From: a virus
Lineage: Duplodnaviria; Heunggongvirae; Uroviricota; Caudoviricetes
Length of the DNA stretch: 18,250 bases
IMG/VR virus record: IMGVR_UViG_2690315922_000010
Direction: 5' to 3' (one strand)
Position 1 is the first letter of the stretch. Each line of letters begins with the position of its first letter. Positions 413-18,134 of this stretch are shown here, piece after piece. A program made the translations under genes and the position numbers. Below the pieces are notes generated by a model. The model was not told the origin of the DNA. It saw only the letters and a program-made list of their open reading frames with translations, and ran no database searches.

Positions 413-739
413 TTACTCCTTCGAGCTACCAAATTTGTTGCCGATTACTCTCATTGCAGCACCACGAATAGCATCGACGCCGATCAGCCCAACGCCGCCA
501 CCAATGGCAACAGAAAGTGATTTAGGCCATCCGACATACTCAAGCGCGGATGCAAAGGTCAGCGTCAGAGCGCCACAGAGCAAAATCTCGAGCGTTTTTC
601 TCTTCCAGCCACCACCACCGCCAAAATAGGCAATGCGCAAGCCAGCCATAACGATCGACATAATCACTGCGCCCAGCGGTGTGTCTCCACGCCACCAGCT
701 CTGGACCAACTCCAGCCAAGTATTTGGGTTATGAGGCAT
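413..739 (-). CDS. S: Holin (lambda S-like class I), 108 aa
   Basis: Sits immediately upstream of R on the same strand with a 3-nt gap. Small protein with hydrophobic segments, a glycine-rich turn (YFGGGGGW) and a charged C-terminus. GAGGTGA ribosome-binding site upstream, though about 13 nt from the ATG. Confidence 0.7.
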   Translation of the reverse strand: MPHNPNTWLELVQSWWRGDTPLGAVIMSIVMAGLRIAYFGGGGGWKRKTLEILLCGALTLTFASALEYVGWPKSLSVAIGGGVGLIGVDAIRGAAMRVIGNKFGSSKE

Positions 740-887: not shown

Positions 888-915
888 GACAAAACCCGCT
901 CGACGGCGGGTTTAA
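888..915 (-). terminator. Candidate intrinsic terminator upstream of the lysis genes (tR-prime-like position)
   Basis: 8-bp stem AAACCCGC/GCGGGTTT (892-899 and 906-913) with 6-nt loop. Read on the minus strand it is followed by a U-rich tail (UUUUGUCGUUUCU). About 150 bp upstream of S. Confidence 0.35.
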
Positions 916-1030
916 GCTGTGTGGCGAAGTAACCACTCTTAACACAATACAATACTTTTTGCGTACGCGTTAGTGTTTTGATAGAATTTTCAGCCACATA
1001 AAAATCCATTCTTATAATTGGGGATATATA

Positions 1031-2206
1031 ATGGATATAACTTGTTTAGAATGTGGCAATGTTCTTGACGACCCAACTGTAGCTTGCGATAAATGCGGTG
1101 CCACGCCTCATGTTGTAGTGCTGGGCAAACAATCGTACTTTCCTATTGGTGCTGTAACAGCAAATCTTGAAAAAAATGATTCAAGAGCATTTGATTATCG
1201 ATTAGGTGAAGTTTGGGATCTAAAAAATGAAGTCACATCTGAATTCATAACCAGAATTGAGAAAAAATTTAGCCGAAAAAACAAATTTCATAACTTCCTA
1301 GACTCAGATCACAACCCTTCATCCATTCCTACGATCCTAAAAAAATACATTAATAAAAATAATGAATTCATTGATTTATCTAGAGCTATAATAGAGAGGC
1401 TTAAACATAATGCTAATAACGAATCGAGAGTTGCCCAACTTCAGGGGGGGAGCGTTGTTTTCATCCACTATAAGTCTACCGAACCAGAGGATTTGGGGAA
1501 ACTTCTAATCGTAATGGTTGATAAACAAAGCGCCTATGACTTTGATTCGGATAAGTTGACCCCAACAAGATTAAATCCAATTAATACCGATGCCTTACGG
1601 CAGGCTGCGATGTTCGATTTAACTTTATTCGAAGCCAGTTATCCAGAAAACAAGGGTGACTCATATGTACATTTCTTGCAAGGTAAATCTAAAAGCGATT
1701 TTTTCAAAGACTCATTAGGTTGCCGACATGATTCGGACAATAAAAGAAGCATTCAGCAATTATTCAGTGCTATAGATATTTTTGCTAGTAAAAACTCACT
1801 CGGTCGTGTACTGCGTGATACTATTGACAATGAAGTTAAATCCTTACTGGAAAAAAAATCAAAAGATAAACACGGAAATAAGTCCGTTAAGATAGAGGAT
1901 ATTTCAAAAATAATTGACTCATGCCTGACTGATTCACACAAATGTAAGGGAACGTTTGTCGATTTTGTTAATCTTAATGGTTTCCAGATTGACCCTCAAT
2001 TTGAACCAACTCCTAAAGCAGCTGAAAGCGCGCTTACAATTGAAGTGGCAGATAACGACAATAATTTTAAGTTGAAAATAATGCGTGGAGCTATTGGAGA
2101 CGAAAAGTCAAATAAGCCTGTAATTCTCACTGACAACAAATGCGAAATTGTGATAAAATTGAGTCAGGCAAATTATGATGAACTCAAAAGATATAGAGAC
2201 AGCTAA
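1031..2206 (+). CDS. Zinc-ribbon protein with NdpA/YejK-like (nucleoid-associated, PF04245-like) domain, 391 aa; cassette gene 1
   Basis: ATG at 1031 with GGGGA 6 nt upstream. N-terminal CxxC-X10-CxxC (C5, C8, C19, C22). Central block GGSVVFIHYK...LLIVMVDK...YVHFLQGKSKSDFFKDSLG resembles the NdpA/YejK signature as I remember it. Strongly AT-rich codon usage compared with flanking phage genes. Function is inferred, not confirmed. Confidence 0.8.
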   Translation: MDITCLECGNVLDDPTVACDKCGATPHVVVLGKQSYFPIGAVTANLEKNDSRAFDYRLGEVWDLKNEVTSEFITRIEKKFSRKNKFHNFLDSDHNPSSIPTILKKYINKNNEFIDLSRAIIERLKHNANNESRVAQLQGGSVVFIHYKSTEPEDLGKLLIVMVDKQSAYDFDSDKLTPTRLNPINTDALRQAAMFDLTLFEASYPENKGDSYVHFLQGKSKSDFFKDSLGCRHDSDNKRSIQQLFSAIDIFASKNSLGRVLRDTIDNEVKSLLEKKSKDKHGNKSVKIEDISKIIDSCLTDSHKCKGTFVDFVNLNGFQIDPQFEPTPKAAESALTIEVADNDNNFKLKIMRGAIGDEKSNKPVILTDNKCEIVIKLSQANYDELKRYRDS

Positions 2207-2208
2207 TA

Positions 2209-3423
2209 ATGACAATTGCTGATGACTTATCAAGATTAGCGCAGATTATTAACGGAGCCTCAAGCAGAGTTGAGGGCTACTACACTGTCATAAGTCTTGA
2301 AGAAAGCATTGTTATTGTAAATAGTTCTGAAATAATTAGACTGTTACAATCTATAGGTTATAAAAAGGCAACAACCTGCATCGAAAATAATGAAATTTGG
2401 CTAGATCGCCAAGCTTCATCTTGGGATGACGCTATAATTTATGAGAATGTTGAGTCTTTTTGGTCTAGAGTAAACACCCAAAACGCTCTTCCGAAAAATT
2501 ATATCATCGGAACGCCGTTAATACTCCCTACTTCTAAGAATGAAAGCATCGAAAAAATCCATATTTTCTTTATGTGGAAAGATATCCTTTCATTAATTGC
2601 TGATCATCATAACAGTGACTGCTCTGTCTTATTTTTCACCAATGAAGACAAAAGTTATACAGTCGAACTCACGCATTTTTTACAATATAGCGAGATTAAT
2701 CGCTTATCGAACTCGTCTCTTAAATATGAAATTATAAAGGAGCTTCTCGACACAATAAAAATCAATGATTTACACAAAAGCGAGCGCAAGCTCGTTATAC
2801 GCTCAGCCATAAACGAAGTATTTAAAGCAAATGGTACGTTCAATTTCTTTGACTTGCTTAACTCTACTGAACTCGTCAGGAAAAAATATGATGAACTATA
2901 TGAGATTTACACAAAGAGGTTTTCTGTAAATAAAATTCTTAACGAACTCGATGAGAAAAATCTTGAGTTCACGAGTAAAATTAACGAATTCATATCATCT
3001 AATCAGACAAAAGCATTGACTATTCCCGGTGCATTAATAGCAGCTGGTGGCTTAGTGAAGGCTAATGAAACAACCGAAGCAATATTGATTATCGCAGGAC
3101 TTTGGATGATAAAAAAAGTCAATTACATTTCTATTGAGATATTCAATGAAACATTCGACAACTTACGTTCTCGAGTGGAGTCCGCTTTCGATAAGTATTT
3201 AAAGTTTGAAGAAAATAAAGAAATCAAAGATAATGCAGATAGTATTAAGAGTAGCATTACAGGTTTGATTGATAAAGCTAAAAAAAGGATGAGAACTGTT
3301 AAATATCTCGCATCAGCCATGTTTTATGGAGGCCTTATTTACGTTGGATATAAACAGTTCCCAGTCTTTTTTGAAAAATCGGCAGTAAATCTATTTTATT
3401 TTTTATGCCATACTATAAGCTAA
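2209..3423 (+). CDS. Membrane-anchored protein of unknown function, 404 aa; cassette gene 2
   Basis: ATG 2 nt after the stop of gene 1, suggesting translational coupling. About 265 aa soluble N-terminal domain, then a hydrophobic helical hairpin (about aa 268-303, ALTIPGALIAAGGLV...AILIIAGLWMI) and a third hydrophobic segment (about aa 366-380, YLASAMFYGGLIYVGY). AT-rich like gene 1. No recognisable catalytic motif. Confidence 0.75.
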   Translation: MTIADDLSRLAQIINGASSRVEGYYTVISLEESIVIVNSSEIIRLLQSIGYKKATTCIENNEIWLDRQASSWDDAIIYENVESFWSRVNTQNALPKNYIIGTPLILPTSKNESIEKIHIFFMWKDILSLIADHHNSDCSVLFFTNEDKSYTVELTHFLQYSEINRLSNSSLKYEIIKELLDTIKINDLHKSERKLVIRSAINEVFKANGTFNFFDLLNSTELVRKKYDELYEIYTKRFSVNKILNELDEKNLEFTSKINEFISSNQTKALTIPGALIAAGGLVKANETTEAILIIAGLWMIKKVNYISIEIFNETFDNLRSRVESAFDKYLKFEENKEIKDNADSIKSSITGLIDKAKKRMRTVKYLASAMFYGGLIYVGYKQFPVFFEKSAVNLFYFLCHTIS

Positions 3424-3759
3424 CATTGCTAAACAGCCGTCAACAAACCCCATTGCAGTTTGCAGTTCCTTCCTAATTGTGCCATCAGAGCATTTTCTCT
3501 TCTTCGCAATAGTGCGTAATGAGATACCGATAACAAAGTGGGCGATGATGAGCTCATATTCCTCTGGTTTATACCTTCTCAACCGAGCCACACAACTGTC
3601 TATCATGATGCCTTCATCATCATCGCACTGGAGACGTGACTTTTTACCGTGTGGTAGAAGCCCCTTGAAACCAGCCGCTATCGGCTGCCAGTCGACACCA
3701 CTATTTTCTGCTGCAGCCCAAGCCCCCCAACGATCTAAAACTTCGTACATATCACGCAT
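3403..3759 (-). CDS. Q: Late-gene antiterminator Q (phage 21/QuuD-like family), 118 aa
   Basis: MRDMYEVLDRWGAWAAAENSG...AAGFKGLL...RLQCDDDEG...CSDGTIRKELQ matches the small Q family of E. coli lambdoid prophages as I recall it. Lies between the replication genes and the lysis genes. ATG overlaps the stop of the upstream gene (TGATG). Confidence 0.8.
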   Translation of the reverse strand: MRDMYEVLDRWGAWAAAENSGVDWQPIAAGFKGLLPHGKKSRLQCDDDEGIMIDSCVARLRRYKPEEYELIIAHFVIGISLRTIAKKRKCSDGTIRKELQTAMGFVDGCLAMLAYSMA

Positions 3760-10545: not shown

Positions 10546-11043
10546 ATGTCATCGTATATGGGATTACCAACAAATCAGCACGATGCTCTTGAGAATATTC
10601 AGCTCTTAGTAGGGGCTGGTGCACTACTGTATAGCAGCAATAACCCTGAGTTAATTGAACTTGCCAGCTCCATCCTGGCTGTAACTCAAAAATATAGCCT
10701 CACCGCGTCACGTTTATGCAAACAAAATTTAGCTATTAATTCCCAGAATCGGATTCGCACCCAACGCGAAGCCTGCGGCTTAACAACCGCCGAACTCGCC
10801 AGGCTGCTCGAACTCGATGAAGAAATCATCATTCAGTGGGAGAGTGGAGAGTATGAACCAACCATCAGTATGCTTATCCCACTGGCTAATGTTCTTGGCT
10901 GCGATCCGATGTGGCTGTTAACTGGCGAGGTTACTCCTCCGGAGCAACCAAAAAGTGAGGAGCAGCAACACCATGACGCATCTCAACAAGTTTGCTCCTT
11001 ATCTCGCGAAGCTCTTCTACGGAAGAACCAATACCAATGGTGA
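10546..11043 (+). CDS. XRE-family HTH protein with about 70-aa N-terminal extension, about 165 aa
   Basis: ATG at 10546 preceded by AGAGGA; the track start is at 10537. HTH segment TQREACGLTTAELARLLELDEEIIIQWESGEYEPTISMLIPLANVLGCDPMWLL. First gene downstream of the pL-like promoter. The C-terminal tail may be shorter than the ORF. Confidence 0.6.
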   Translation: MSSYMGLPTNQHDALENIQLLVGAGALLYSSNNPELIELASSILAVTQKYSLTASRLCKQNLAINSQNRIRTQREACGLTTAELARLLELDEEIIIQWESGEYEPTISMLIPLANVLGCDPMWLLTGEVTPPEQPKSEEQQHHDASQQVCSLSREALLRKNQYQW

Positions 11044-11171
11044 CATAATCGCCGCTTCGCCCCTCAAGGTACATGCGAACATTTTTATCAATCATTGCGG
11101 AAACAGTCTCAATATGAAAACACTTCTGAGACTCGCTATATAGCAGAACATATAAGTCAGCTGAGGAAGCC

Positions 11172-11537
11172 ATGAAAAAGTTCGAAAACATAACTGTTCT
11201 CCATGTTGATGACTTTGATTATACAAACCCGAAACTTCTCCCGAAGGTTGTAAAGGCAATAGATGTTGCCGATATAGTGATTAGAGGAAAGAGAATTGTC
11301 AAAAACAGGCTCGCATGCACTTCAGGAGCAATGACAGAAACAACCTCACAACAAGATGATTATGAAGGCATTTGTCTGGAGCCTGATTCATTTGCGGTAA
11401 ATGTTTATCATTTATTGCATGCAACACAGGTATTACATATGTCAAGTAATCACGAAACAAAAACACTTGGCAGCGAAATTCTGAATTTTGCATGTGAATA
11501 TGCAAAAGCTGCTGCCGAAAAAGAATTAGCGCAATAA
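11172..11537 (+). CDS. Hypothetical protein, 121 aa
   Basis: ATG preceded by GAGGAA. AT-rich. No recognisable domain. Confidence 0.6.
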   Translation: MKKFENITVLHVDDFDYTNPKLLPKVVKAIDVADIVIRGKRIVKNRLACTSGAMTETTSQQDDYEGICLEPDSFAVNVYHLLHATQVLHMSSNHETKTLGSEILNFACEYAKAAAEKELAQ

Positions 11538-11615
11538 CAATAAATATTCCCTGAATGTTTATTACGGTTTTATCGCCGGAGATTGTTGCAACCTTTATTC
11601 GCAGGAGATTATGTT

Positions 11616-11729
11616 ATGACTTTCCTGAAACATAAGGCATCGTATAAAACTGCCTGCCTCATTGCACAACATGGAGATTCTTATCTTCATATAGCCAACC
11701 TGTATTTGCGCAAAGCATATGGGAGATAA
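11616..11729 (+). CDS. Possible small protein, 37 aa
   Basis: ATG preceded by AGGAGA at ideal spacing. Stop lies within the ribosome-binding site of the next gene. Not in the ORF track because it is below the length cut-off. Confidence 0.3.
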   Translation: MTFLKHKASYKTACLIAQHGDSYLHIANLYLRKAYGR

Positions 11730-11733
11730 GTCA

Positions 11734-11922
11734 ATGGAAGAAAAACAACAAAACATAACACATAAAAAAGTAAGAGTGTTGCTAACCATTGAAAATGGTG
11801 AAGTAATTTACTCAAAACATCTGTTGGATAGTGAATTCGTTGGCTGCATGGATACATTTCTGTGGATGGCAAAAAGAGCTGGCTACACGATTATTCCACC
11901 AGCAAAGGAGCAAACATTATGA
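11734..11922 (+). CDS. Hypothetical protein, about 62 aa
   Basis: ATG at 11734 preceded by GGGAGA; the track start is at 11719. Stop overlaps the next gene's start (ATGA). Confidence 0.5.
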   Translation: MEEKQQNITHKKVRVLLTIENGEVIYSKHLLDSEFVGCMDTFLWMAKRAGYTIIPPAKEQTL

Positions 11923-12500
11923 ATCATTCAGAGTTCCGACCAGAAGTTACTCCACATGGCATAAAAATTGGCAATACAACCATTGATTATGTTGAAGCTG
12001 TGCGGCGTCTTAATGATGGTGAATACGATTATCCAAATTCACGCGGTTTAAGAATCCTTCAGTGCCTTGCCGAAGCTGATGATGCCGGATTGCTGGGGAA
12101 ATTTTCCATCGATATGAAGGTTGCACAATGGCGCTGGCTGTATGTAACGATATTTATAAACGAAGAGGAATATAAGAACGGCACCATTGATATCTCGAAC
12201 GAAAACGGAACTACAGGTCGCGCAGTTATTTATAAAGGGAAATATGGTTGTATGGGTATCTACCCGGGACCAATTCGCATTGCCCTGCAAAACCATGTCG
12301 AATGGGGATTTATTGAAAAATATGGTGAAGATGAAGGTATGGGGCGAGTTCTGTTTCTCTATCAAAAAATGCTCATCGCAGATCCTGATAATGGTTTCAT
12401 TGTTTCTGCTATGGGACGCGAAGGGCTTGAACTCCTTCTGGATGAAATGATTAACGACCTGAATACTCATGGTATGCCAGAAGCGCCAGTGACACATTAA
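11919..12500 (+). CDS. Hypothetical protein, about 193 aa
   Basis: ATG at 11919 preceded by AAGGAG and coupled to the upstream gene. The track's longer N-terminus is rejected. No recognisable domain. Confidence 0.65.
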   Translation: MNHSEFRPEVTPHGIKIGNTTIDYVEAVRRLNDGEYDYPNSRGLRILQCLAEADDAGLLGKFSIDMKVAQWRWLYVTIFINEEEYKNGTIDISNENGTTGRAVIYKGKYGCMGIYPGPIRIALQNHVEWGFIEKYGEDEGMGRVLFLYQKMLIADPDNGFIVSAMGREGLELLLDEMINDLNTHGMPEAPVTH

Positions 12501-12546
12501 ATATTAAGAAGAAAATAATTCTTCCAGTTTTTTACTAACCGTTTAT

Positions 12547-12654
12547 ATGAAAAGCAACCGTGAATTAAACAGAGTAAAACTGATTTTAATCCTTGCCACA
12601 GTGGTGACACTAACTGAAATTATTATTCTCTTTATTGCGCTGTCAGTCGGTTAA
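12547..12654 (+). CDS. Possible small hydrophobic peptide, 35 aa (single transmembrane helix)
   Basis: MKSNRELNRVKLILILATVVTLTEIIILFIALSVG. No clear Shine-Dalgarno. Below the track cut-off. Confidence 0.3.
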   Translation: MKSNRELNRVKLILILATVVTLTEIIILFIALSVG

Positions 12655-12677
12655 AAATATCGGGATACCACAGACCA

Positions 12678-12866
12678 ATGAGACTGTATTTCACAATAGT
12701 AATTTTACTGGCAATTATCGCATGCATTTACGGATTACTCGTTCCGTTCCTTATATCCATGAAGGATACGATAGCAGTTATTTCTGGCTTTGCACTGGCG
12801 TTTCTGACCCCGCCCTGCATTTATGCCATTTACAAGGGTCTTTCTTTCACTAAGGATAAAAGATGA
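12678..12866 (+). CDS. Small membrane protein, 62 aa (two predicted transmembrane helices)
   Basis: Two hydrophobic helices. Stop overlaps the start of the SPFH gene (ATGA), suggesting co-translation with it. Confidence 0.5.
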   Translation: MRLYFTIVILLAIIACIYGLLVPFLISMKDTIAVISGFALAFLTPPCIYAIYKGLSFTKDKR

Positions 12867-13690
12867 AAAAAATTATTTTTGCTTTAGCCATTGTTCTGCC
12901 GACTATTGGCCTCGTCGGTTGCGATCGCGTTGAACCAGGTAATGTTGGCATCAAGGTAAATAAACTGGGCGACGACAAAGGCGTCGGTGAGGTGGTCGGT
13001 GTTGGTCGCTACTGGACAGGCTGGAACACTGAAGTTTATATCTTCCCGACCTTTAAGCAGATGAAGACCTACGATGATCCATTCAGTTTCCAGATGAGCG
13101 ATGGAACAACCATTGGTTACCACATCGGAGTAGCCTACAAAGTTGATCCATCCAAAGTTACCACGGTGTTTCAAACCTACCGCAAAGGTGTGGATGACAT
13201 TACCGACACCGACCTGCGCCAGAAGATAGCAGATGCACTAAATCGGCTGGCCAGCAAAATGACCACCGACAAATTTATCGACGGCGGCAAGTCTGAGCTG
13301 CTGGATGCAGCTCTAAAAGATATTCAGGCAGAAATGACGCCCATCGGTATTCAGGTAATGAGCCTGTCTTATGTAGGTAAACCGGAGTACCCGCCAACCG
13401 TTATCGACAGCATTAACGCCAAAGTCACGGCAAACCAGAAAACCCTGCAACGCGAGCAGGAAGTAAAACAGCGCGAAGCGGAAGCCAACATGTTGCGTGC
13501 GGAGGCTGCCGGACAGGCAGATGCAATTCGCACAAAAGCTCAGGCCGAAGCCGATGCTATTCGTTTACGCGGTGAAGCTCTGCGCCAGAACCCCGGTGTT
13601 ATGGAGCTGGAAGCCATCAATAAATGGAACGGCACACTGCCGCAATACATGACCAGCGGTGCCAATACACCATTTATCCAGGTTAAATAA
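12863..13690 (+). CDS. SPFH/Band-7 (stomatin/HflK/C-like) lipoprotein, 275 aa
   Basis: Signal peptide with lipobox LVGC. Band-7 core followed by an Ala/Glu/Gln-rich coiled coil (QREQEVKQREAEANMLRAEAAGQADAIRTKAQAEADAIRLRGEA). AAGGA ribosome-binding site. Confidence 0.85.
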   Translation: MKKIIFALAIVLPTIGLVGCDRVEPGNVGIKVNKLGDDKGVGEVVGVGRYWTGWNTEVYIFPTFKQMKTYDDPFSFQMSDGTTIGYHIGVAYKVDPSKVTTVFQTYRKGVDDITDTDLRQKIADALNRLASKMTTDKFIDGGKSELLDAALKDIQAEMTPIGIQVMSLSYVGKPEYPPTVIDSINAKVTANQKTLQREQEVKQREAEANMLRAEAAGQADAIRTKAQAEADAIRLRGEALRQNPGVMELEAINKWNGTLPQYMTSGANTPFIQVK

Positions 13691-13730
13691 CTTATATGCC
13701 CGGCAGGCCGCCGGGCTAAGGGAAAAGCAG

Positions 13731-14090
13731 ATGAACACCCATAATGCCCAACCGCAAATAATGAACTATGACCCGAATCTGACGTCATGCGGACGCATGG
13801 CAAAACAAACCGTTCGATTAACTTTCGGGTTATGGGAATACCGCGAAACATTCGAAGTCACTGTCGGTGGCAACCTGACCGGACTCGATGTTATCAGTTG
13901 CGCTATTGAAAGCCTGTACGCAACGCTGCCTTATGAAGAAGTCGAGGATGAGCGCGATATCATCGCCACCATTAATATCGGCGGCGTGAAATGCAAGGAT
14001 GAAAACTTGATCGGAGAACTCTGGCTTGCCGGGATGCTTATCTCTGCAGAAATTATCAGTATTGAACCCGCTACAAACATACCGCTCTGA
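13731..14090 (+). CDS. Hypothetical protein, about 119 aa
   Basis: ATG at 13731 preceded by AAGGGA; the track start at 13659 is rejected because it overlaps the SPFH gene. Confidence 0.6.
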   Translation: MNTHNAQPQIMNYDPNLTSCGRMAKQTVRLTFGLWEYRETFEVTVGGNLTGLDVISCAIESLYATLPYEEVEDERDIIATINIGGVKCKDENLIGELWLAGMLISAEIISIEPATNIPL

Positions 14091-14121
14091 AGTTCTCACA
14101 ACTCAGGGAACAGGAGAAAAA

Positions 14122-14813: not shown

Positions 14814-16127
14814 ATGGATAAAGTCAAATATCCAACAGGCGTCGAAAACCACGGCGGCACATTACGCATCTGGTTTAATTTTAAAGGTAAACGTGTCAGG
14901 GAAAATCTTGGTGTCCCTGACACTGCCAAGAACAGGAAGATCGCCGGGGAACTACGGACATCGGTATGTTTTGCCATCCGCACAGGAAGCTTTGATTATG
15001 CTGCACAGTTCCCTGACTCCCCTAACCTTCAGGCTTTTGGGGTAAGTAAAAAAGAAATTACGGTGAAAGAACTTGAAGAAAAATGGCTGGATCTGAAACG
15101 AATGGAAATCTCTGCAAATGCATTCAATCGCTATGAATCCGTTGCAAGAACGATGGTTCCGAAAATTGGAGGCAGCAGACTGGTGTCATCGGTAACTAAA
15201 GAGGAATTGCTGTATATCAGGAAAGATTTGCTGACCGGGTATCAGAATCCAACGAAAAACAAAGCAGCAGCAAAAGGACGGAGCGTCGTTACTGTAAATT
15301 ATTACATGACGACAATCGCTGGAATGTTTCAGTTTGCTGCAGATCACGGTTACTTAGAAGCAAATCCCTTCCAGGGAATTAAGCCTCTTAAAAGAGCCAG
15401 GGCAGAGCCAGATCCGCTAACTCGTGACGAATTTATTCGCCTGATAGATGCTTGCCGACATCAGCAGACGAAAAACCTGTGGTCATTGGCTGTGTACACA
15501 GGAATGCGTCACGGTGAACTGGTCTCCCTGGCCTGGGAAGATATCGATCTGAAAGCAGGAACTATTACTATCAGGCGCAATTATACGAAACTCGGTGAGT
15601 TCACTCTACCTAAAACTGAAGCAAGTACAAACAGGGTTGTGCATCTTATCCAGCCCGCTATCAGTGTCCTGAAAAATCAGGCTGAAATGACAAGACTGGG
15701 TAAGCAGCACCACATCAAGGTTCAACTACGTGAATATGGGCGTTCAGTGAATCATGAATGTACTTTCGTATTTAACCCCCAGGTGGTTAGAAAAAGCAAA
15801 CAGGTCGGTTTTATCTACAAGGTAGATTCTATTGGCGACTCATGGGAAACAGCCATTAAGCGTGCGGGCATCAGGCACCGGAAAGCATACCAGTCACGAC
15901 ACACTTATGCGTGCTGGTCGTTATCTGCCGGAGCAAATCCAAGCTTCATTGCCAGCCAGATGGGCCATGCAAGTGCCCAGATGGTGTTCAATGTATACGG
16001 AGCATGGATGACTGACAGTAATGCAGAACAGATCGCAATGCTGAATCAGAAGCTGGCAGATTATGTCCCAATGATGCCCCATAGTCACCAAAATGGCACA
16101 AAAGGCTTATTAAAATCAGTAAGTTAA
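14814..16127 (+). CDS. int: Tyrosine integrase (lambda Int-like, IntR/IntE-type N-terminal arm-binding domain), 437 aa
   Basis: GGAGG ribosome-binding site. N-terminus PTGVENHGGTLRIWFNFKGKRVRE...GSFDYAAQFPDSP is typical of E. coli lambdoid integrases. C-terminal catalytic region has conserved Arg, His-x-x-Arg (SRHTYA) and Tyr. Last gene before the host junction. Confidence 0.9.
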   Translation: MDKVKYPTGVENHGGTLRIWFNFKGKRVRENLGVPDTAKNRKIAGELRTSVCFAIRTGSFDYAAQFPDSPNLQAFGVSKKEITVKELEEKWLDLKRMEISANAFNRYESVARTMVPKIGGSRLVSSVTKEELLYIRKDLLTGYQNPTKNKAAAKGRSVVTVNYYMTTIAGMFQFAADHGYLEANPFQGIKPLKRARAEPDPLTRDEFIRLIDACRHQQTKNLWSLAVYTGMRHGELVSLAWEDIDLKAGTITIRRNYTKLGEFTLPKTEASTNRVVHLIQPAISVLKNQAEMTRLGKQHHIKVQLREYGRSVNHECTFVFNPQVVRKSKQVGFIYKVDSIGDSWETAIKRAGIRHRKAYQSRHTYACWSLSAGANPSFIASQMGHASAQMVFNVYGAWMTDSNAEQIAMLNQKLADYVPMMPHSHQNGTKGLLKSVS

Positions 16128-16610: not shown

Positions 16611-18134
16611 ATGAAACGTGCAATCAGTTACATCCGATTCAGTTCTGAGAAGCAATCCCGAGGTGATTCACTACGCCGACAATCGAAGTTGGTCACTGAC
16701 TGGCTTAAAGCTCGTCCTGAGTATCATCTAGATGAATCTCTTACCTTCCGTGATTTGGGGAAAAGTGCTTTTAGCGGTAAGCACTTGAAAGGTGGCTTAG
16801 GCGACTTCTTAACCGCTATTGAGAAAGGGCTTGTAAGAGCTGGTGATACGCTCTTGATAGAGTCTCTTGACCGTCTGTCACGGCAAGATGTAGACCGAGC
16901 AAGTGAACTACTCAGAAACATCCTTCGCTCTGGTGTCGATGTGGTCACATTATCCGATAATGAACACTACACAAAGGAATCTCTTAAAGACCCGTTAGCC
17001 TTGATTAAGTCAATCCTGATTATGCAACGAGCGCATGAGGAAAGTTTGAGGAAGTCTGAGCGTATACAGGCTGCATGGGATGCAAAGAAAGAAGCCGCTA
17101 AAGCTGGTATCAAGATTTCTAAGCGTTGCCCTGCATGGCTTAAGCTTAATAATGACCGTAAAAGTTTCTCTGTAATCCCTGAGAAGGTAGCGACGGTAAA
17201 GCGATGCTTCCAGCTACGGTTAGAGGGTAAGTCTATCTTGGAAATTGTCAGAACTCTTAATAGTGAGGGACATCAGACGCTTAACCAGTACAAAGCGGGT
17301 AAATTTAGTCAGACTTCTGTGCAAGACCTTTTGAAGAATCGCTCTGTAATTGGTTATTTCACCCCCAAAGGCTGTGAAGAAATTTCAAACTATTACCCCT
17401 CTATCATCCCTGAGACTGATTTCTACAAAGTCCAGCAACTATCATATCCTCGTTACGGTAGAAAACCTGCTTCAGATAAACCATTGAGTGTGAATCTTTT
17501 CAAGGGTGTTATCCGTTGTTCTGAATGTGGTCATGCTCTGATTATCACAGGCTTTAGCGATACAAGGAACGGGATATATCGCTGCCCTCTTCGTAATGAA
17601 AACCGTTGCAGTGCTAAGGGTCTGTCACGTAAGCAAACTGATGGAACATTACTTGCTTTGCTCTCTCGTCTTGACCGATTTGAGAATGGTACAACGAATG
17701 CCATTGATACACTGAAGCTACACCGTGAACACATTTCAAACAATATTGAGAAGCTGGTACAACTCTCACTTGAAGTCGAAGACCTGACCGCTATTACCAG
17801 CAAGTTAAAACAGTTAAAGGGGGAGTTATCACAGGTTGATGCTGATATTGAGAAGGAGGCACAACGCCTTAAATCTATTGACGTGGGTTGTTTGTCTGAT
17901 TGTGACTTGAGTACAAAGGCGGGAAGGATTGAAGCACAACTGATTATTCGTAGTGCTGTTAAAGAAGTTGTTTTAAACACTGCTAAACGTCGCTGTAGAG
18001 TAACTTTTCACAATGGCAAGGTGATTGACCTGTCGATAACAGAAAACCCCGCTCAGGACATTACAGAGGCTGAAAAGTCGCTTACTGAAATTGCTGAGAA
18101 GGGTCTGTTAGATGTTGACGCCTTCCAACTGTAG
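16611..18134 (+). CDS. Large serine recombinase (serine integrase), 507 aa
   Basis: N-terminal resolvase-type catalytic domain (AISYIRFSSEKQSRGDSLRRQ with Ser nucleophile, LIESLDRLSR). Recombinase domain, Cys-rich zinc-ribbon (CSECGH...YRCPLRNENRC) and C-terminal coiled coil. Confidence 0.9.
   Translation: MKRAISYIRFSSEKQSRGDSLRRQSKLVTDWLKARPEYHLDESLTFRDLGKSAFSGKHLKGGLGDFLTAIEKGLVRAGDTLLIESLDRLSRQDVDRASELLRNILRSGVDVVTLSDNEHYTKESLKDPLALIKSILIMQRAHEESLRKSERIQAAWDAKKEAAKAGIKISKRCPAWLKLNNDRKSFSVIPEKVATVKRCFQLRLEGKSILEIVRTLNSEGHQTLNQYKAGKFSQTSVQDLLKNRSVIGYFTPKGCEEISNYYPSIIPETDFYKVQQLSYPRYGRKPASDKPLSVNLFKGVIRCSECGHALIITGFSDTRNGIYRCPLRNENRCSAKGLSRKQTDGTLLALLSRLDRFENGTTNAIDTLKLHREHISNNIEKLVQLSLEVEDLTAITSKLKQLKGELSQVDADIEKEAQRLKSIDVGCLSDCDLSTKAGRIEAQLIIRSAVKEVVLNTAKRRCRVTFHNGKVIDLSITENPAQDITEAEKSLTEIAEKGLLDVDAFQL

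Follow-up and report, generated by a model that had tools for sequence, protein, structure and literature searches.

Anatomy and proposed mode of action of DS-1B, the membrane partner in a two-gene anti-phage system carried by a lambdoid prophage

Introduction

What is the role of a prophage gene whose product combines a long amino-terminal part of no recognisable kind with a hydrophobic hairpin and a third hydrophobic segment, and which follows a partner gene almost without a gap? The question is raised by gene 2 (2209-3423, + strand) of an 18,250-nucleotide stretch of DNA from a virus of the Caudoviricetes (IMG/VR record IMGVR_UViG_2690315922_000010), the whole of which is referred to here as the window. 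An original prediction, made from the sequence of the window alone, described the product as a membrane-anchored protein and a possible effector of a two-gene defence system, while allowing that it could equally be a phage-encoded membrane protein with another role. We report that gene 2 is identified by its sequence as DS-1B, the second gene of an anti-phage system that has already been described, and we argue that DS-1B is probably the inner-membrane component of that system, triggered by its displaced partner, DS-1A, to compromise the inner membrane.

Identification of gene 2 as DS-1B

Two open reading frames (ORFs) on the same strand are held by a 2.4-kb island of approximately 35% G+C, the flanks of which are at approximately 50%:

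1031..2206, + strand: gene 1, DS-1A, YejK/NA37 nucleoid-associated domain with a fused zinc ribbon, the presumed sensor partner (NF053868, PF04245)
2209..3423, + strand: gene 2, DS-1B, 404 amino acids plus stop codon (NF053869, phrog_5023, identity with WP_000150292.1)

The second ORF opens with an ATG codon, and its tight coupling to gene 1 was correctly predicted, because it begins 2 nt past the gene 1 stop codon. Its product is 100% identical over 404 amino acids to WP_000150292.1 and scored 375.2 bits against the NCBIfam model NF053869 ('DS1_2_antiphage'), for which the curated equivalog cut-off is 315; residues 46-378 of the protein span profile positions 1-337 of 337. Among PHROG families it matches phrog_5023 (2e-158), a family that is unnamed. 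The product of gene 1 scored 452.3 bits against NF053868 ('DS1_1_antiphage, nucleoid-associated anti-phage protein'; cut-off 330), matched Pfam family PF04245 (NA37/YejK) at 5.5e-24, and equals WP_000355468.1 except for K123R, a change that stems from a single G/A difference at window position 1398 from the closest Escherichia coli record. The two reference proteins together constitute transcription unit D390, which is DS-1 (PMC13092281, Tables S6, S8 and S11). On this sequence evidence gene 2 is DS-1B, the second gene of a published and named two-gene system with a curated NCBI model.

General domain collections were less informative. Pfam gave only weak chance matches to the gene 2 product (SWIB, CdvA), and the absence of any above-threshold match anywhere in the protein agrees with the earlier remark that the first 265 or so residues hold no recognisable motif. 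PADLOC-DB 2.0 (5027 models; 2023, before DS-1 was described) returned no family for either protein at an expectation value (E) of up to 1. Amino acids 5-24 of gene 1 (window 1043-1102) contain two CxxC pairs, which form an N-terminal zinc ribbon ahead of the NA37 domain; the two pairs recur in three further loci (L002, L008 and L012), and distant NA37 partners (331-364 amino acids) are without the ribbon. The zinc ribbon of DS-1A is mentioned neither in PMC13092281 nor in bioRxiv 10.64898/2026.04.06.716658.

Defence by this gene pair is established in the literature. In the DefensePredictor study (Science 2026; PMC13092281), DS-1 was validated as a two-gene anti-phage unit in E. coli MG1655, into which it was introduced with its native promoter on a low-copy plasmid before challenge by 24 phages. 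Protection, expressed as the negative logarithm of the efficiency of plating, was 7.6 for Bas1, 2.7 for Bas26, 1.7 for both Bas3 and T3, 1.0 for T5 and 0.9 for T7 (PMC13092281, Table S7). That paper presents the plaque data and, for gene A, a YejK domain that it calls newly validated in defence; the architecture of gene B is not discussed. The pair that was assayed and the pair in the window share the two-gene layout and an identical gene B, and differ by one conservative change in gene A, which carries K123 in the published assays and R123 in the window. The possible role in a two-gene defence system is thus borne out by the fact that the exact protein is the second gene of validated DS-1.

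Anatomy and membrane topology of DS-1B

An AlphaFold2 (AF2) model of DS-1B was built with a 35-sequence alignment; its mean predicted local distance difference test (pLDDT) score was 86.4, with values of approximately 90 over amino acids 1-218 and the lowest, 66-73, at the hairpin. The N-terminal part of the model consists of an alpha/beta domain (1-160), helices between 169 and 218, and then a 49-residue helix (220-268); after a break at 269-270 the C-terminal part continues with helices 271-284, 288-331, 337-383 and, lastly, 385-403. All three hydrophobic segments are helical in the model. The protein was accordingly divided as follows:

2209..2862, + strand: predicted cytoplasmic alpha/beta and helical domain, amino acids 1-218, acidic, candidate docking site for the nucleoid-associated partner (AF2, charge count)
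2866..3012, + strand: long stalk helix, amino acids 220-268, most conserved stretch of the family (AF2; conservation in 164 superfamily sequences)
3013..3117, + strand: hydrophobic helical hairpin, amino acids 269-303, made of H1 (269-283), the loop KANETTE and H2 (291-303) (hydropathy, conservation, AF2)
3118..3303, + strand: predicted cytoplasmic helical arm, amino acids 304-365, ending in the basic cluster KAKKRMRTVK before H3 (AF2; charge)
3304..3357, + strand: third hydrophobic segment, amino acids 366-383, predicted in-to-out transmembrane helix (hydropathy peak, positive-inside bias, SH3 in P0058/P0086)
3358..3420, + strand: short variable C-terminal tail, amino acids 384-404, probably periplasmic (not conserved)

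Residues 1-218 carry a net charge of -8 and have an isoelectric point (pI) of 5.2; across the family the net charge of this domain ranges from -1 to -19.

The hydrophobic hairpin and the third, C-terminal segment were found where the original prediction had placed them: H1 (ALTIPGALIAAGGLV) occupies amino acids 269-283, H2 (AILIIAGLWMI(KK)) amino acids 291-303, and H3 (YLASAMFYGGLIYVGY) amino acids 366-381. Hydropathy was calculated on the Kyte-Doolittle scale in a 19-residue window, for which the classical transmembrane cut-off is 1.6. The best window of E. coli DS-1B reaches 1.56, set against 0.86-1.47 for the soluble proteins encoded in the window and 1.77 for the holin, and the transmembrane call from the E. 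coli sequence by itself is borderline. The family is clearer. When hydropathy was averaged over its members in a 15-residue window, exactly three peaks emerged, at 269-283, 291-305 and 367-381 (2.03, 1.90 and 1.82, respectively), the fourth-ranking peak of the profile being 0.77; of some 120 full-length representatives of the superfamily, nearly all rise above 1.6, with maxima of 1.7-3.4 that fall mostly on one or both of the hydrophobic positions. All three segments are retained in more than 150 representatives of the 769-cluster superfamily.

The distribution of charge fits a topology in which the N-terminus is inside, the hairpin loop outside and the C-terminus outside, as the positive-inside rule would have it: the stretch before H3 has a net charge of +2.5 (residues 351-365 include six lysines or arginines) and the hairpin loop one of -0.7. 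The C-terminal tail is replaced in homologues by low-complexity tails rich in K, E, P and Q or by SH3 domains; in P0058 (L008, 5854-7473) and P0086 a long extension past the third segment ends in a bacterial SH3 domain, a type normally located outside the cytoplasm. These extensions hint that in some lineages the protein touches the cell wall. Because the homologues keep both the three hydrophobic peaks and the positive-inside charges, we regard the membrane architecture as settled, and the topology of DS-1B as well supported. A simple sum of the Hessa 2005 scale over the uncharged runs gave +2.2 kcal/mol for H1, -2.3 kcal/mol for H2 and +3.6 kcal/mol for H3, and was set aside as too crude to decide.

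Conservation and pairing with DS-1A

A word-indexed search recovered 69 relatives of DS-1B, and an exhaustive profile search (E up to 0.001) extended the family to 769 cluster representatives, nearly every one of approximately 400 amino acids. In an alignment of 164 superfamily sequences, the stalk helix and the first hairpin helix form the most conserved part of the protein. At the start of the hairpin, Pro273 is present in every sequence (100%); within the stalk, F238 is retained in 91%, K268 in 90%, and S239, K242, E246, K257 and Q266 in 83-86% of sequences, and G297 in H2 is retained in 82%. H1 always comprises 15 uncharged residues. Since conservation of both the stalk and the hairpin is hard to square with mere anchoring, the hairpin is probably more than a passive anchor.

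The pairing of the two genes is equally constant. Among loci where the upstream DNA could be read, an NA37-like gene stands directly upstream of the DS-1B homologue and on the same strand in 12 of the 12 genome loci recovered (the pairs count as intact in 11; one locus has decayed and another is truncated at the end of its contig), and directly upstream in four distant metagenomic members as well. The spacing between the genes varies from -44 to +17 nt, and the pairwise identities of the two proteins correlate closely (r = 0.95, 15 loci). With the partner always upstream, the spacing tight and the correlation this high, both genes evidently move and diverge together as a single unit. The pairs of Pseudoteredinibacter and Pseudomonas reside outside prophages, in the setting of a defence island, with AbiEii, AAA_15/21 plus HNH, DUF4145 and transposases as neighbours.

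Comparison with type II PANGU and proposed mechanism

A model for the action of such a pair is offered by PANGU, in which a YejK-like nucleoid-associated protein senses phage-induced genome damage, leaves the nucleoid and activates a partner effector; in type II PANGU, the sensor Pag2A is combined with Pag2B, a transmembrane protein whose N-terminal domain is acidic and DNA-mimicking (bioRxiv 10.64898/2026.04.06.716658). For the E. coli type II system, both genes are required and neither is toxic alone, the phenotype is one of abortive infection at high multiplicity of infection (MOI), Pag2A-GFP departs from the nucleoid upon T4 infection, and the N-terminal domain of Pag2B binds Pag2A with a dissociation constant (KD) of 19 nM (bioRxiv 10.64898/2026.04.06.716658).

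DS-1 has in common with type II PANGU a bicistronic operon that joins a YejK-like (PF04245) nucleoid-associated protein to a membrane partner; DS-1B and Pag2B both begin with an acidic domain and carry a membrane domain towards the C-terminus, made up in DS-1B of three conserved hydrophobic helices within the final third of its length; and both systems are found in E. coli, are linked to defence islands and are spread across phyla. The zinc ribbon present in DS-1A is not mentioned for Pag2A. By this analogy DS-1 is probably a type II PANGU, and it is because of the shared architecture and the acidic N-terminal domain that a PANGU-type model is favoured for DS-1B.

According to this model, DS-1A, with its zinc ribbon and YejK-like domain, would reside on the chromosome; damage or remodelling of the nucleoid by an infecting phage would free it, and the freed protein would bind the acidic cytoplasmic domain of DS-1B. 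In DS-1B itself, the cytoplasmic domain would be followed by the stalk, the proline hinge, the hairpin, a cytoplasmic arm and a third helix that places the short tail in the periplasm. The stalk (220-268) and the hinge at the invariant proline would relay the signal to the hairpin (269-303), which would rearrange or oligomerise; the inner membrane would then be compromised, and the infected cell would no longer support phage growth (abortive infection). The freeing of the sensor, its docking on the N-terminal domain and the abortive outcome of infection are carried over, by analogy, from the type II PANGU of matching architecture, and permeabilisation of the membrane by DS-1B is what we infer. 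Taken as a whole, this account is the best explanation that we can offer and one that we hold to be somewhat probable.

Several points weigh against it. The antiviral spectra differ: the two PANGU systems studied were assayed on T4 and gave no protection against T1 or T5, whereas DS-1 is strongest on Bas1, which we take to be a T1-like phage of the BASEL collection. DS-1 is without a T4 entry in Table S7 and acts on Bas1, Bas26 and T3 (PMC13092281). The putative equivalence of DS-1 and PANGU-Ecu is drawn from their matching architecture. Membrane damage by DS-1B or Pag2B is shown in neither PMC13092281 nor bioRxiv 10.64898/2026.04.06.716658, the latter of which states that how Pag2A engages and activates Pag2B is undetermined. 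None of the known pore-formers or channels gave a significant match in a Foldseek search against the PDB. Lastly, E. coli DS-1B stays below the strict hydropathy cut-off (1.56 against 1.6), and H2, with only 11 uncharged residues, is too short for a canonical membrane span.

Alternative explanations

The alternative that survives best, although we consider it unlikely, is that DS-1B serves as a membrane tether or platform that holds or recruits DS-1A at the inner membrane, DS-1A being the real effector, for instance by coating or sequestering incoming phage DNA where it enters the cell, and the defence being non-abortive. DS-1A does have a DNA-binding NA37 fold and a zinc ribbon, and the block on Bas1 is complete (7.6 logs, no plaques), as is typical of early blocks; for the comparable PANGU system, the lack of toxicity of either gene alone would fit, and a role for PagB as a sensor licensing PagA is raised at one point (bioRxiv 10.64898/2026.04.06.716658). 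A passive anchor, however, would need neither an invariant proline nor a near-invariant hairpin across 164 diverged proteins. The comparable type II PANGU is, moreover, abortive at high MOI, and other PANGU-like operons pair NA37 with clearly toxic modules (toxSAS, lysozymes), which points to NA37 as a shared sensor.

That DS-1B is instead a sensor in the envelope, detecting DNA injection, depolarisation or the action of holin and signalling inward to a DS-1A that acts on DNA, is in our view improbable. The conserved stalk and hinge do join the membrane part to a cytoplasmic domain, as in signal transducers, and the periplasmic SH3 domains of some homologues could contact the cell wall; but the E. 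coli protein exposes very little to the periplasm (a 7-residue loop and a 21-residue tail), and what it exposes is poorly conserved, leaving little to sense with, and the nucleoid-associated protein of the comparable system relocates when the nucleoid is damaged, which locates the sensing step at the DNA.

Less probable still is a soluble protein, in which the hydrophobic helices would be the buried core of a helical bundle. Such a reading draws on the sub-threshold hydropathy of the E. coli protein (1.56 in the best 19-residue window, below 1.6) and on the shortness of its helices, H1 and H2 having only 15 and 11 uncharged residues, respectively. Against it, the corresponding positions reach 3.4 in homologues, the conserved peaks number exactly three and are accompanied by positive-inside charges, and SH3 domains of an extracytoplasmic type lie past the third segment in P0058 and P0086; the model, too, is least confident at the hairpin (pLDDT 66-73), as would be expected of a segment that requires lipid.

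Relation to known pore-formers, channels and effectors

The best match of the DS-1B model to the PDB by Foldseek had an E of 0.49, nothing significant was found in BFVD, and a profile search of PDB sequences with DS-1B, at E up to 10, gave no match. Among the hits, CorA channels and ClyA-family toxins do recur, and resemble DS-1B in the order of parts or in hairpin length; we treat these resemblances as leads on a possible mode of action and not as evidence of membership. No significant fold similarity to a solved member of either group was found. The GMN motif of the CorA/Mrs2 magnesium channels is absent from DS-1B, which has in addition an extra helical arm and a third membrane helix. With the ClyA family (ClyA, AhlB, SmhB, MakA) DS-1B shares a long helical bundle with a hydrophobic hairpin of approximately 35 residues that could insert into a bilayer, but those toxins are secreted and attack from outside, whereas DS-1B, which has a cytoplasmic domain of its own, would act from within.

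The transmembrane effectors of CBASS, Thoeris, retron and SLATT-type systems follow a logic shared with DS-1, in which a sensor protein and a few membrane helices lead to abortive infection; they have no sequence relationship with DS-1B, however, and the sensor of DS-1 is a protein partner rather than a nucleotide signal. A tentative and rather doubtful extension is that DS-1B might represent a structurally new class of effector: a gated oligomer that acts from inside, is arranged like a channel (cytoplasmic sensor domain, stalk helix, hinge at the invariant proline, short hairpin), opens only upon docking of a nucleoid-associated protein displaced from damaged DNA, lacks relatives among solved pore-formers and channels, and is deployed by a prophage from the slot between Q and holin.

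Prophage setting of the cassette

The surroundings of the two genes are those of a lambdoid prophage, and the following features delimit the cassette:

413..739, - strand: lambda-family holin gene, at the left edge of the cargo slot (in near-identical E. coli loci annotated as WP_001120497.1, 'phage holin, lambda family')
978..1005, + strand: candidate sigma-70 promoter of the cassette, TTGATA-16-AAAAAT (consensus scan, 9/12 matches; weak evidence)
3403..3759, - strand: Q antiterminator gene, right boundary of the slot (ORF list; WP_001205470.1, 'antiterminator Q family protein')

The slot filled by the cassette extends from the stop codon of Q to a leader that is conserved 5' of holin in many lambdoid phages (900-1005; 3403-3423). 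Similarity to other lambdoid phages stops near 1005, and the remainder of the window is a lambdoid prophage early region with DnaB, a DnaC-like loader, Ash/Rha, a cI-type repressor and an integrase. Q and gene 2 are convergent, their 3' ends overlapping by 21 bp (3403-3423); the cassette is opposed to the late genes, and late transcripts starting at or near Q would therefore cross it in antisense. In the consensus scan, the region held no more promoter-like sites than expected from shuffling, which leaves the choice of a promoter for the cassette a guess. A strong terminator-like hairpin (892-913, - strand; 8-bp stem with five G-C pairs, followed by a T run) lies just upstream of the holin gene, and could be a late-operon terminator, similar to tR', that is read through by Q.

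The complete cassette was present in 106 of 5426 complete E. coli genomes, each time adjoining Q; a query spanning 900-3500 found partial matches in 1089 E. coli genomes, of which only those 106 contain the cassette. It likewise adjoins Q in plasmid records of E. coli and Klebsiella, and in phage SfII the equivalent slot between Q and holin is occupied by unrelated genes on the opposite strand. A tblastn search with the gene 2 product revealed no homologue among 50,697 deposited phage genomes, hence no isolated phage in that collection has gene 2; the gene is found in integrated prophages and phage-like plasmids. The DS-1 pair is horizontally acquired cargo of a lambdoid prophage, its E. coli version being situated in the Q-holin slot. 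The other option left by the original prediction, a phage-encoded membrane protein, holds in the literal sense that DS-1B is prophage cargo, which is in no conflict with defence. That its role would lie outside defence, in lysis timing or in exclusion of superinfecting lambdoid relatives only, as its opposite-strand position between Q and holin and its convergent overlap with Q might suggest, is scarcely credible, the idea being largely refuted by published plaque assays in which the pair protects a prophage-free plasmid host from unrelated lytic phages, and opposed further by distant homologues in chromosomal defence islands with no prophage genes nearby and by the unrelated cargo of SfII.

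Two other regions of the window were noted. At 11000-14100, with the immunity region on one side and the integrase on the other, lies a second stretch of lower G+C (38-43%). It contains the gene for an SPFH/Band 7 protein (12863-13690), which bears a lipoprotein-like signal, and, overlapping that gene, a 143-residue ORF with a hydrophobic C-terminus (13659-14090), and may be another accessory membrane module of the prophage. Farther on, a large serine recombinase (16611-18134) with Resolvase, Recombinase and zinc-ribbon domains lies less than 500 bp beyond a tyrosine integrase (14814-16127); this adjacency suggests two abutting mobile elements or a composite attachment region.

Discussion

DS-1 had already been found, tested and named, and the window adds no new kind of system. 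What is added here is a concrete anatomy and a membrane topology model for DS-1B; obvious targets for mutagenesis, in the form of its conserved stalk and its hinge at the invariant proline; and the recognition that the pairing of a nucleoid protein with a membrane protein is an old and strictly co-inherited unit, represented by approximately 770 diverged clusters. DS-1 poses the question of how a DNA-bound sensor switches on a membrane protein, a question that is directly testable by way of the residues named here.

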